From Escherichia coli (lineage in GTDB: Bacteria > Pseudomonadota > Gammaproteobacteria > Enterobacterales > Enterobacteriaceae), in the NCBI RefSeq assembly GCF_003790525.1, contig NZ_CP033635.1: a stretch of 64,000 bases of DNA; one strand, 5' to 3'. This document shows positions 51,328 through 58,506 of this stretch, one piece after another. A model generated the notes under the pieces. The model made no database searches. It saw only the letters and a list, made by a program, of their open reading frames with translations, and was not told where the DNA came from. The position numbers and the translations under genes are program-made. Every line of letters begins with the position of its first letter. Positions within the stretch are counted from its first letter, which is position 1.

Positions 51328-53406
51328 TTAAATCAATGCCGATTTATCAATTCCCAGTCGCTTCATCCGTGACAGCAGAGTCGTGCGTTTCAGCCCCAGA
51401 CGTTGCGCAGCGCCTTTAGGCCCGGCAACCACGCCGTTTGTTTCTTTCAGCACGCGAACAATCAACTGATATTCATCTTCGCCCTCCTGGGCGACAACCG
51501 TTGCGGCAGGCGGCGTTTCAGGTTCTGGTAAAGCAATATCTGGCAATGACAGCTGCAGCACGTTGCCGCGTGTTAGCAATACCGCGCGCTCGATGACGTT
51601 TTCCAGCTCACGCACGTTGCCCGGCCATTCCATGTTGCTCAGGATGCGCAGCGTCTCGGCAGGAATGCTGTCGATATTGCGCCCCAGACGACGGGCAATT
51701 TTGAAGGTAAAGGCTTTCGCCAGCAGCGGAATATCTTCCGGACGCTCGCGTAGTGGCGGCAGGTGGATCGGGAATACGTTCAGGCGGTAATAGAGATCAC
51801 TACGGAACTCTCGGTCGGCGACCATTTTTTTCAGATCGCGGTTAGTCGCGGCAATTAAACGTACGTCCGTCTGAATGATTTTGTTGCTGCCGAGGCGTTC
51901 AAACTCCTGTTCCTGTAATACACGCAGCAACTTCGGCTGTAACTCCAGCGGCATATCGCCCACTTCGTCGAGGAACAGGGAGCTTTTATCCGCCAGTTCA
52001 AAACGACCAATGCGCTGGGCGCTGGCACCGGTAAAAGCCCCACGCTCATGACCAAACAGATCGCTCTCCAGCAATCCGGCAGGCATCGCCGCGCAGTTCA
52101 TTTTTACCATGCGGCGATTATTACGCCCACTGAGATTATGGATAGCACGGGCAATCAGCTCTTTACCCGTGCCAGTTTCACCGAGGATCAGCACGGTACT
52201 GTCACTTTGCGCCACCATTTCAACTTGTTTAAGCACGCTGTACATGGCTTCGCTGCGGCCAATAATCTCGCCAAATTCACTATCAACATTGTTGAGCTGC
52301 TCGGTCAGGGCGAGGTTTTCATCAACCAGCCGTTCTTTCAGACGATGGATTTCCTGATAGGCGAGGGCGTTATCGACAGCGATTGCCACACGTTCGGCAA
52401 TCTGGCGCAGTAAATTCAGATTGGTAGTGGTAAACACTTTCTCTTCGCATTGCGCCAGTTTCAGCACGCCCAGCATGGTGTCGCCAGACATCAGCGGTAA
52501 CAGGCACAAGGTTTGAATCTGGTTGCCCCAGGTGTCGAACAACATGCGTTCATAGGGGGCTAAATCGTCCCGCTCGTGGAGATTAATCAACAGCATCTCT
52601 TTACTTTTGAAGACGCGTTCGGTGAGGGTTCCGGCTTCATCGACTTCGCTCTGTTCGTGGGCGGGATGCTGTTTATCAAGATAGTGAGTGGAGTAGATGT
52701 TGAGTTTGTTTTTACGGTGGCTGCGTAAGACGATGCTGATATCGTCAATGTCGAAGTAGTAATGGATTTCTTTGGCGACTTCGCTGACCAGTTCGTCCAT
52801 ATCCAGGCGGGAAAGCACCGCGTTGGTAATGGCAACCAGGATGCGGAAGTTATCGCGCTCCCGGCATAACAACTCATAGTCGACATTGTTAACGACGCGG
52901 CTCTGGATTTGTTCGGTGACGACCGAAACGATCTGCGTAAATGTTTGCAGACGATTGAACTCTTTTTCGCTCCAGGGGCGATCGTCATAACGAATAAATT
53001 CACAGCCACCAAAAATATGCCCTTCCGCCGCCAGTGGCATCAGGCAATAGTGACCAAATTTGGGGTATAGTCCACCTGCGGCCAGCTGCGGCCAGGTTTC
53101 ACAAAATTCTTCGTAACTGCAATGCAGCGTATCAGGGCGCGACAAAATGCTGCGTACCGGACCGTGTGCCAGAACAGTTTCGTCTTCATATTTAATGGGG
53201 GTGTCTTTTTCACGCGACGCGTAATAAGACGCACGTTGAGTCTGCGCTTGCCACAACACAATAGCCGCGTTGTCGGCGAGCGCAGAACGCTTTACCAGTT
53301 GCGAAAGAGCCTCACACAGCGAGGCCAGATCGGGCTGCTGCAATAGTGTCCGAGTGATGTCGAACAACCCTTGTTGTCCGAGATCACTCATCGGTGTATA
53401 TGACAT
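51328..53406 (-). CDS. fhlA: formate hydrogenlyase transcriptional activator (sigma-54 enhancer-binding protein)
   Basis: Start taken at MSYTPMSDLGQQ (692 aa); AAA+ sigma-54 activator motifs GETGTGKE and GAFTGA; C-terminal HTH. Confidence 0.9.
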   Translation of the reverse strand: MSYTPMSDLGQQGLFDITRTLLQQPDLASLCEALSQLVKRSALADNAAIVLWQAQTQRASYYASREKDTPIKYEDETVLAHGPVRSILSRPDTLHCSYEEFCETWPQLAAGGLYPKFGHYCLMPLAAEGHIFGGCEFIRYDDRPWSEKEFNRLQTFTQIVSVVTEQIQSRVVNNVDYELLCRERDNFRILVAITNAVLSRLDMDELVSEVAKEIHYYFDIDDISIVLRSHRKNKLNIYSTHYLDKQHPAHEQSEVDEAGTLTERVFKSKEMLLINLHERDDLAPYERMLFDTWGNQIQTLCLLPLMSGDTMLGVLKLAQCEEKVFTTTNLNLLRQIAERVAIAVDNALAYQEIHRLKERLVDENLALTEQLNNVDSEFGEIIGRSEAMYSVLKQVEMVAQSDSTVLILGETGTGKELIARAIHNLSGRNNRRMVKMNCAAMPAGLLESDLFGHERGAFTGASAQRIGRFELADKSSLFLDEVGDMPLELQPKLLRVLQEQEFERLGSNKIIQTDVRLIAATNRDLKKMVADREFRSDLYYRLNVFPIHLPPLRERPEDIPLLAKAFTFKIARRLGRNIDSIPAETLRILSNMEWPGNVRELENVIERAVLLTRGNVLQLSLPDIALPEPETPPAATVVAQEGEDEYQLIVRVLKETNGVVAGPKGAAQRLGLKRTTLLSRMKRLGIDKSALI

Positions 53407-53479
53407 TTTGTTCTTCCAGGAAAGCACCGCAAAGCGGTGCAAAAGGTCATTGACTAACTATAGGAGATTTAGAATTTTA

Positions 53480-56746: not shown

Positions 56747-57097
56747 TCACTCCTGGTCTATTTCTATCCGCCGAATCTGTAAACCGTCGTCTGCCACAAT
56801 CTGTAGCATGTCACCATGACACTGTGGACAGCGGCGGACGCGCTGGGTCAGTAGCGTCACATACTGTTGGCATGTTTCACACCAGCATTCGGCCTCTTGT
56901 TCTTCGAGGTGCAGTTTACAACCTTCCGCCATGCTGCCGCGGCAAACCAGATCAAAACAAAAGGCAAGAGAGCTGGTTTCGACACAAGAAAATGCGCCAA
57001 TTTTGAGCCAGACCCCAGTTACGCGTTTTGCGCCGTGTTTTGCGGCCTGCTGTTCGATCAATTCCAGTGCCCGTTGGCAGAGGGTTATTTCGTGCAT
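56747..57097 (-). CDS. hypA: hydrogenase maturation factor HypA
   Basis: Start taken at MHEITLCQRAL (116 aa); zinc-finger CxxC pairs. Confidence 0.9.
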   Translation of the reverse strand: MHEITLCQRALELIEQQAAKHGAKRVTGVWLKIGAFSCVETSSLAFCFDLVCRGSMAEGCKLHLEEQEAECWCETCQQYVTLLTQRVRRCPQCHGDMLQIVADDGLQIRRIEIDQE

Positions 57098-57126
57098 ATC
57101 GCCTCCCATTAACTATTGCCAGCTAC

Positions 57127-57143
57127 AAGCAATAATTGTGCCA
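57127..57143 (-). promoter_or_regulatory. sigma-54 (-24/-12) promoter for the hyp operon
   Basis: Reverse complement reads TGGCAC-AATTA-TTGCTT, a full match to the TGGCAC-N5-TTGCW consensus, about 30 bp upstream of hypA. Confidence 0.6.
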
Positions 57144-57169
57144 GTGTTGATTATCCCTGCGGTGAATAA

Positions 57170-57191
57170 TGTCGATGATGTCGAAATGACA
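57170..57191. promoter_or_regulatory. candidate FhlA upstream activating sequence in the hypA-hycA intergenic region
   Basis: TGTCGATGATGTCGAAATGACA, followed by CGTCGACACGGCGACG; closely resembles a second copy at 57821-57846. Confidence 0.45.
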
Positions 57192-57256
57192 CGTCGACAC
57201 GGCGACGAAATTCATCTTTAGCTTAAAAATCTCTTTAATAACAATAAATTAAAAGT

Positions 57257-57273
57257 TGGCACAGAAAATGCTT
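57257..57273 (+). promoter_or_regulatory. sigma-54 (-24/-12) promoter for the hyc operon
   Basis: TGGCAC-AGAAA-ATGCTT about 36 bp upstream of the hycA ATG. Confidence 0.65.
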
Positions 57274-57308
57274 AAAGCTGGCATCTCTGTTAAACGGGTA
57301 ACCTGACA

Positions 57309-57770
57309 ATGACTATTTGGGAAATAAGCGAGAAAGCCGATTACATCGCACAGCGGCATCGTCGCCTACAGGACCAGTGGCACATCTACTGTAATTCGCT
57401 GGTTCAGGGGATCACGTTATCGAAAGCGCGCCTGCATCACGCCATGAGCTGCGCGCCGGACAAAGAACTCTGTTTCGTCCTTTTTGAACATTTTCGTATT
57501 TATGTCACCCTGGCGGATGGCTTTAACAGCCACACCATCGAGTATTACGTCGAAACAAAAGAGGGTGAAGACAAACAGTGGATTGCGCAGGCGCAACTGA
57601 GCATTGACGGCATGATTGATGGCAAGGTCAACATCCGCGATCGGGAACAGGTTCTGGAACACTATCTCGAAAAAATCGCTGGCGTTTACGACAGCTTATA
57701 TACCGCCATTGAAAACAATGTGCCGGTGAATTTAAGCCAACTGGTAAAGGGACAAAGCCCGGCAGCATGA
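57309..57770 (+). CDS. hycA: formate hydrogenlyase regulatory protein HycA
   Basis: 153 aa; first gene of the hyc operon. Confidence 0.9.
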   Translation: MTIWEISEKADYIAQRHRRLQDQWHIYCNSLVQGITLSKARLHHAMSCAPDKELCFVLFEHFRIYVTLADGFNSHTIEYYVETKEGEDKQWIAQAQLSIDGMIDGKVNIRDREQVLEHYLEKIAGVYDSLYTAIENNVPVNLSQLVKGQSPAA

Positions 57771-57820
57771 GCTGAGGCTTTGCCCGTTTTGCAGGCGTTA
57801 CGCCTGTTTGGGGATGGGCG

Positions 57821-57846
57821 TGTCGATGAGTGTCGAAAATGACATT
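57821..57846. promoter_or_regulatory. second FhlA-UAS-like motif in the hycA-hycB intergenic region
   Basis: TGTCGATGAGTGTCGAAAATGACATT, near-identical in pattern to 57170-57191. Confidence 0.4.
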
Positions 57847-57894
57847 TCATCGGCATGTTTTCGTCAAAAATGACAATCACCTGAGGAATGCCTG

Positions 57895-58506
57895 GTGAAT
57901 CGTTTTGTAATTGCTGACTCCACGCTCTGTATCGGCTGCCACACTTGTGAGGCTGCCTGTTCAGAGACGCATCGCCAGCACGGCCTGCAATCAATGCCGC
58001 GCCTGCGAGTGATGCTCAATGAAAAAGAATCTGCGCCGCAGCTCTGTCACCACTGTGAAGATGCGCCCTGTGCGGTGGTTTGCCCGGTTAACGCCATCAC
58101 CCGCGTTGATGGGGCCGTGCAGTTGAATGAAAGTCTGTGCGTAAGCTGCAAACTGTGCGGCATCGCCTGCCCGTTTGGCGCAATTGAATTTTCCGGCAGC
58201 CGTCCGCTGGATATTCCGGCAAACGCCAATACCCCGAAAGCGCCACCGGCACCGCCTGCTCCGGCGCGTGTCAGCACATTGCTTGACTGGGTGCCAGGTA
58301 TTCGCGCGATCGCCGTCAAATGTGACCTTTGTAGTTTTGATGAACAAGGTCCGGCCTGCGTGCGGATGTGCCCGACTAAAGCCCTGCATCTGGTGGATAA
58401 CACCGATATCGCCCGCGTCAGCAAACGTAAGCGTGAGCTGACTTTTAACACGGACTTTGGCGATCTCACCTTGTTTCAGCAGGCTCAAAGTGGAGAGGCT
58501 AAATGA
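57895..58506 (+). CDS. hycB: formate hydrogenlyase subunit 2 (4Fe-4S ferredoxin-type)
   Basis: 203 aa, GTG start; multiple CxxCxxCxxxCP motifs. Confidence 0.9.
   Translation: MNRFVIADSTLCIGCHTCEAACSETHRQHGLQSMPRLRVMLNEKESAPQLCHHCEDAPCAVVCPVNAITRVDGAVQLNESLCVSCKLCGIACPFGAIEFSGSRPLDIPANANTPKAPPAPPAPARVSTLLDWVPGIRAIAVKCDLCSFDEQGPACVRMCPTKALHLVDNTDIARVSKRKRELTFNTDFGDLTLFQQAQSGEAK

Follow-up and report, generated by a model that had tools for sequence, protein, structure and literature searches.

Which elements of the hypA-hycA-hycB region allow two divergent operons to be transcribed under the control of FhlA, and is the near-identical motif found on both sides of hycA, as an earlier note on this DNA proposed, the sequence that FhlA recognizes? 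Sigma-54 promoters do not open without an ATP-dependent activator; HycA, encoded by the first gene of the hyc operon, is an anti-activator of FhlA. The FhlA upstream sites (UAS) of the formate regulon, which comprises fdhF, hyc, hyp, hydN-hypF, and hyf, have been described by Birkmann & Boeck 1989, Lutz et al. 1990, and Schlensog et al. 1994, and further by Hopper et al. 1994 and Leonhartsberger et al. 2000. The locus is a textbook regulatory node of fermentative hydrogen production (formate hydrogenlyase) in E. coli, and our results are mainly confirmatory: the feature is real, strongly conserved, and already known, such sites having already been catalogued. We consider it very likely that the formate regulon of E. 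coli has its regulatory core here, in the form of divergent sigma-54 promoters and two FhlA enhancer blocks. What the present analysis contributes are the elements, how they stand out statistically, how well they are conserved, and how they are spaced, while FhlA binding, formate dependence, and the requirements for sigma-54 and IHF are taken from the established literature.

The window, i.e., the whole stretch of 64,000 nucleotides that was analyzed, contains both the target genes and the gene for their activator. Over 1.6 kb around hypA-hycA-hycB it is 99.9% identical to E. coli SMS-3-5, and of 5426 complete E. coli genomes, 5425 contain this 1.6-kb region, with the annotation hypB-hypA / hycA-hycB. 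The relevant genes are the following:

56747-57097, minus strand: hypA, first gene of the hyp operon (open reading frame; RefSeq annotation of the identical region; NF002979 HypA, 241 bits)
57309-57770, plus strand: hycA, bracketed by both enhancer blocks (open reading frame; NF007567 HycA, 300 bits)
57895-58506, plus strand: hycB, second gene of the hyc operon (open reading frame and RefSeq annotation)
51328-53406 (open reading frame 51328-53442), minus strand: fhlA (NCBIfam NF011958)

The assignment of fhlA, the cognate activator gene, is based on a match to NF011958 ("formate hydrogenlyase transcriptional activator") over residues 13-704 with 1548 bits, the cutoff being 830. It is the last gene of the hypABCDE-fhlA operon and lies in the same 64-kb window.

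Divergent sigma-54 promoters of hyp and hyc

Two -24/-12 elements are located in the gap between hypA and hycA:

57128-57143, minus strand: P_hyp element TGGCACAATTATTGCT, 0 mismatches to TGGCAC-N5-TTGCW, predicted start near 57118
57257-57272, plus strand: P_hyc element TGGCACAGAAAATGCT, 1 mismatch to TGGCAC-N5-TTGCW, predicted start near 57283

Both harbor the GG and GC doublets ten bases apart within this pattern, and they are divergent, facing outward about 20 to 26 nt 5' of hypA and hycA. The pattern alone is not rarer than chance, with 3 matches in the window against 4.0 expected. The significance of the two matches therefore comes from their placement and conservation, together with published sigma-54 occupancy. 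Indeed, both promoters are kept in all of the 81 orthologous loci that we compared. In K-12, where P_hyp is identical and P_hyc differs by one base, the two promoters are sigma-54 ChIP-seq peaks (PMC4591121) and lie inside a sigma-54 gSELEX peak (PMC8743547), and their Salmonella counterparts are sigma-54 ChIP-chip peaks (PMC3844500). Pattern matches, orientation, conservation, and published peaks thus bear out the divergent sigma-54 promoters that the earlier note had described. A generic promoter and terminator scan of positions 57000-58000 returned nothing exceeding shuffles.

Locus, promoters, and motifs are the same as in the formate regulon described for E. coli. K-12 is identical over both motif blocks, and nothing of substance differs from it apart from one base of the P_hyc spacer, position 57264, which is G here and A in K-12 (TGGCACAGAAAATGCT versus TGGCACAAAAAATGCT). 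A functional effect of this exchange is unlikely because the position is non-consensus. We also observed that P_hyp (57117-57143) and P_hyc (57257-57283) are 27-nt mirror copies of each other, 78% complementary. The similarity extends past -12 as far as a second GCTGGCA located at the predicted starts (TGGCACAatTAtTGCTTgtAGCTGGCA versus TGGCACAgaAAaTGCTTaaAGCTGGCA), an extension that is not retained in Enterobacter or Citrobacter.

Predicted FhlA enhancer blocks on either side of hycA

The gapped motif TGTCGATGA-N0-1-TGTCGAAA-N0-1-TGACA has exactly two matches in the 64 kb, at 57170-57191 and 57821-57844, and 0 matches in 100 dinucleotide-preserving shuffles. The coordinates given previously for copy 1 are correct, whereas copy 2 had been extended to 57846 by two extra T's and ends at 57844. 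Around these two copies we delimited the following elements:

57170-57200, no strand: UAS-1, predicted FhlA enhancer block; the copy 1 of the earlier note is 57170-57191, TGTCGATGATGTCGAAATGACA
57239-57251, plus strand: IHF-like site TAACAATAAATTA, matching WATCAANNNNTTR with one mismatch, between UAS-1 and P_hyc
57821-57855, no strand: UAS-2 site A, predicted FhlA site; the earlier copy 2 is 57821-57844, TGTCGATGAgTGTCGAAAaTGACA
57858-57875, no strand: UAS-2 site B, predicted FhlA site TTTTCGTCAAAAATGACA, recognized by direct repeat, matrix score, and conservation

UAS-1 consists of four tetrads (TGTC at 57170, TGTC at 57179, GACA at 57188, and GACA at 57196) that form an imperfect palindrome around GAAAT. 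Relative to the hyc start its center falls near -98, and relative to the hyp start near -67; the block is about 27 bp away from the hyp -24 element. Site A of UAS-2 is likewise an imperfect palindrome, around GAAAAT, with TGTC at 57821, TGTC at 57831, GACA at 57841, and a weaker outer arm, TCGGCA, at 57850-57855. Site B holds a second copy of GTC(G/A)AAAATGACA (57863-57875), 31 bp past the copy in site A, and the ribosome-binding region of hycB (57876-57894) adjoins the block. Measured from the hyp start, UAS-2 (site A) is some 720 bp upstream; measured from the hyc start, it is some 555 bp downstream. Site B, the fourth half-site of each block, and the IHF-like site had been absent from the earlier note.

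We then turned to a description of FhlA sites taken from the literature, a 14-position weight matrix derived from 13 characterized sites (Schlensog 1994, Leonhartsberger 2000) (PMC7658346, Table 2), the consensus of which is TG[AT]C[AG]A[AT][AG]ATG[AT]CA (PMC7658346). Both strands of the whole window were scanned, corresponding to about 128,000 positions, and the three top matches all fell in the two UAS blocks:

57831-57844: TGTCGAAAATGACA, best match of the window, 16.6 of a possible 16.8
57170-57183: TGTCGATGATGTCG, second best, 15.3
57862-57875: CGTCAAAAATGACA, third best, 12.3

Very probably, the 13 training sites include these ones and the scan is partly circular; this probable membership also implies that both regions already figure among catalogued FhlA sites. 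Taken together with the conservation across genera and the presence of fhlA in the window, the three top matches are in good agreement with the earlier proposal of a repeated FhlA-UAS-type motif flanking hycA. A second quoted FhlA consensus, the 16-mer CATTTCGTACGAAATG (PMC4987338), fits best at 57857, in site B, with 11 of 16 positions, and only with 9 of 16 at the motif of the earlier note. We did not retain it as a detector, as it is a poor discriminator: 11 unrelated positions of the window score at least 11/16.

Counting TGWC/GWCA tetrads, we found 5 in UAS-1 against 0.6 expected and 7 in UAS-2 against 0.7 expected. Seven tetrads, as many as in UAS-2, also occur within 60 nt of the hypA coding sequence (56809-56868), with a matrix match of 11.2 at 56817-56830; this cluster overlaps the Cys/His-rich end of hypA. 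It was considered as a third enhancer and set aside as a probable product of chance and codon composition.

The IHF-like site is a common feature of the hypA-hycA gap. A match with at most 2 mismatches, starting 18 to 19 nt before the hyc TGGCA, is present in 67/81 loci and is perfect in 27 of them. IHF has been given as an activator of both hyc and hyp (PMC2636881). The region comprising the hyc IHF-like site and the -24 element (AATAACAATAAATTAAAAGTTGGCA, 57236-57262) is moreover nearly identical to a stretch upstream of hydN (AATAACAGTAAATTAAAAACTGGCA), located in K-12 at about 1160-1190 of locus L002 and found also at about 3325-3355 of L085. By sequence, this suggests that the two may represent a promoter module shared within the regulon.

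The first 45 nt or so past the hycA stop codon (57771-57815) carry inverted repeats, one pairing 57741-57759 with 57776-57794 and another, GCAGGCGTTACGCCTGT, near 57791-57807. They are limited to Escherichia, Citrobacter, and Salmonella, in which the hycA-hycB spacer measures 124-146 nt versus 67-97 nt in most other genera. The terminator scan made no call at these repeats (57771-57815).

Conservation of the locus and of its tetrad array

To follow the locus across the Enterobacteriaceae, we took one genome per species, which gave 80 HycA-encoding loci with 63-99% protein identity (81 loci enter the counts). They cover more than 15 genera, among them Escherichia, Salmonella, Citrobacter, Enterobacter, Klebsiella, Raoultella, Kluyvera, Kosakonia, Lelliottia, and Pseudocitrobacter. 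The order hypA / hycA-hycB was the same in all compared loci, and both UAS blocks were retained along with both promoters. In alignments of the two spacers, the conserved positions cluster at the promoters, in both motif blocks, and in the ribosome-binding region of hycB, the rest varying freely. The same contrast is seen within E. coli: of the 5426 records, 5148 show at least 99% identity over UAS-1 and 5362 over UAS-2, while the surrounding 1.6 kb reach this level in only 415.

What is conserved at both positions across genera is a tripartite TGWC-N-TGWCG-N-GWCA unit, the spacing of which is specific to the site. The main spacing classes were as follows:

hypA-hycA spacer, spacing 9/8: 52 loci
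hypA-hycA spacer, spacing 8/8: 15 loci
hycA-hycB spacer, spacing 10/8: 41 loci
hycA-hycB spacer, spacing 10/9: 34 loci

Accordingly, the two copies in the window differ by two 1-nt insertions, copy 1 being spaced 9/8 and copy 2 10/9. Over the full set of tetrads the spacing is 9/9/8 in UAS-1 versus 10/10/11 in UAS-2, a difference that one rigid mode of binding would not easily accommodate. The exact 22-mer, searched in the compared loci, was confined to the hyp-hyc loci of Escherichia and did not occur in other genera. The whole motif of 22 to 24 nt was also absent upstream of fdhF, hydN, and hyfA of K-12 and upstream of hydN of SMS-3-5. All that the fdhF, hydN, and hyfA upstream regions have in common with the UAS blocks are clusters of TGWC/GWCA tetrads, 7 against 0.9 expected at fdhF and 8 against 0.6 at hydN, and FhlA matrix scores upstream of fdhF and hydN were only 6 to 9. 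Since the 22-mer is missing there and the tetrad clusters are present, the shared determinant would be the tetrad array and not a long motif. The idea that the binding determinants follow from the near-identity of the two copies can therefore be kept only in part: the motif is present in both blocks, but its 22-nt form is an Escherichia trait and the spacing differs between the copies. Upstream of fdhF and hydN, where the earlier note had suggested looking for the motif, only tetrad clusters were seen.

The most invariant element of the locus is site B. Across 78 aligned sequences its core, TCGTCA ... TGAC, shows little or no variation, a regular expression for the site matches 80/81 loci, and in 67/81 the site ends 20 nt before the hycB start. 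Each block extends into a fourth half-site (GACA at 57196 and TCGGCA at 57850-57855), an arm that only about half of the loci have. The tetrad array as the conserved unit, its site-specific spacing, the invariance of the hycB-proximal site, and the stepwise distances described below are small refinements, which could be of use in engineering promoters for hydrogen production or in designing studies of FhlA binding.

The distance between the UAS-1 core and P_hyc falls into classes of 50, 61-64, 72-73, and 85-86 bp, and that between the UAS-1 core and the hyp -24 element into classes of 28-30, 40-42, and 52-53 bp. Both series are spaced by approximately whole helical turns, which indicates that insertions and deletions between UAS-1 and the promoters come in such steps (loci L005-L084, uncorrected for shared ancestry).

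The Klebsiella-Raoultella group has another layout in the first spacer, TGTCGATGAC...GTCATCGACA. In Klebsiella, Raoultella, and their relatives, UAS-1 consists of two inverted copies of TGTCGATGAC about 12 to 14 nt apart, and UAS-2 has its usual form (loci L039, L040, L045, L051, L056, L066, L067, L070, and L083). In UAS-2, the positions flanking the inner TGTC...GACA (57829-57830 with 57845-57846) co-vary among genera, as in AGTGTC...GACATT versus GGTGTC...GACACC. The independent events are too few to judge, and the covariation may reflect symmetric protein contact or shared ancestry. Finally, one metagenome-assembled "Citrobacter sp." has two hyc loci, on contigs DXKH01000118.1 (L005) and DXKH01000052.1 (L022). 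One of its HycA copies is 99% identical to the protein of the window and the other is Citrobacter-like, with 85% identity; the E. coli-like contig, of 6.6 kb, is probably a binning contaminant.

Wiring of the two enhancers and alternative readings

The best-supported scheme is the one already established. FhlA would bind the TGWC/GWCA tetrads, about one helical turn apart, via its C-terminal helix-turn-helix domains. In the presence of formate, bound FhlA would oligomerize and hydrolyze ATP through its AAA+ domain, whereby closed sigma-54 holoenzyme complexes would be remodeled and opened. P_hyc would be reached from UAS-1, at about -98, with an IHF-type bend in between, which would correspond to the classical enhancer-bend-promoter layout. 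P_hyp would most likely be reached from UAS-2 via a DNA loop of about 0.7 kb, because our sigma-54 pattern scan detected no further promoter close to UAS-2; the distance is long and within the known range of enhancer action. The position of fhlA at the end of the hyp operon would provide positive feedback, and that of hycA, the FhlA antagonist, at the head of the hyc operon would provide negative feedback. The allocation of UAS-1 to hyc and of UAS-2 to hyp, like the contact model with four tetrads, is in each case an inference. The Boeck laboratory reportedly obtained FhlA footprints both in the hyp-hyc gap, assigned to hyc, and between hycA and hycB, assigned to hyp, with an IHF-induced bend separating the enhancer from the hyc promoter. 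Schlensog and colleagues and Hopper and colleagues reportedly observed, in 1994, protection or shift by FhlA as well as formate- and FhlA-dependent activation, and purified FhlA is reported to shift both blocks in gels.

An alternative, which we regard as unlikely, is that UAS-1 is a bidirectional enhancer shared by P_hyc and P_hyp, UAS-2 being an auxiliary site or reservoir that raises the local concentration of FhlA or loops with UAS-1. UAS-1 does sit between P_hyc and P_hyp, the spacing from it to the hyp -24 element is helically phased as well, and the promoters themselves are mirror copies over 27 nt. However, a mere 67 bp or so separate the center of UAS-1 from the hyp start, a short interval for looping, and it contains no bend site. 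As for an auxiliary role, UAS-2 is conserved at least as well as UAS-1, its near-invariant site B argues for an essential function, and the primary literature reportedly gives the hycA-hycB site to hyp. We favor separate enhancers, with UAS-1 acting on hyc and UAS-2 on hyp.

A more elaborate version of this wiring is conceivable and, in our view, very unlikely. FhlA bound at UAS-1 and UAS-2 might bridge the approximately 650 bp between them and loop out hycA, and/or the palindrome of UAS-2, once transcribed, might tune the translation of hycB. If the loop were real, activation of hyp and hyc would be coupled to transcription of FhlA's own antagonist.

That UAS-2 acts also, or instead, as a hairpin of the hyc mRNA ahead of the hycB ribosome-binding site, affecting hycB translation or transcript processing, seems highly improbable. 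UAS-2 is indeed transcribed within the hyc mRNA and ends 20 nt before hycB, and the block has dyad symmetry. Changes in both partners are seen for the two pairs flanking TGTC/GACA, and only for these (13 and 7 sequences); doubly changed cells numbered 30 versus 17.7 in shuffles. On the other hand, the same motif occurs in UAS-1, an untranscribed block located 5' of both start sites. RNAalifold returned only invariant 4-bp stems, with 0 compensatory pairs and a covariation term of +0.13, and the extended stem, which we had specified ourselves, paired in 77.4% of cells versus 76.0% in shuffles. Between a third and two thirds of the sequences cannot form its outer pairs, the right arm is deleted in the Enterobacter group, and the conservation is that of primary sequence. 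A comparison of the hycA-hycB spacer with Rfam gave no match. With no compensatory pairs, pairing at about the level of shuffles, and no Rfam match, we rejected a structured cis-regulatory RNA in this spacer.

Practically no weight can be given to the reading of the two copies as a recent local duplication, gene conversion, or a functionless chance repeat, or as sites of another regulator of the TGTC-N-GACA type such as GlrR: the exact 22-mer identity is restricted to Escherichia, as a duplication would have it, but the tripartite architecture with its site-specific spacing stands at both positions in more than 15 genera and the motif is missing from shuffles. The case of GlrR (QseF) deserves mention in that the same TGTC and GACA tetrads serve another sigma-54 activator, the glmY/glmZ enhancer being TGTC-N10-GACA (PMC4987338). 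Here, however, the spacer is 5 to 6 nt instead of 10, regulator and signal are different, and the sole promoters nearby are the two FhlA-dependent ones.

The locus also has parallels among other sigma-54 systems. The tandem NtrC sites at glnAp2 are clustered dyad sites about 100 bp upstream of a -24/-12 promoter, with an IHF bend. The three-site NorR enhancer of norVW is organized in the same manner, with clustered dyad sites about 100 bp upstream of a -24/-12 promoter and an IHF bend (PMC2831303). The half-sites of these systems, GT-N7-AC for NorR and TGCACC-N5-GGTGCA for NtrC, are unlike the TGWC/GWCA tetrads of the present locus. Unlike in either system, moreover, one of the two blocks is located here inside the neighboring operon, about 0.7 kb from the promoter that it is thought to serve.
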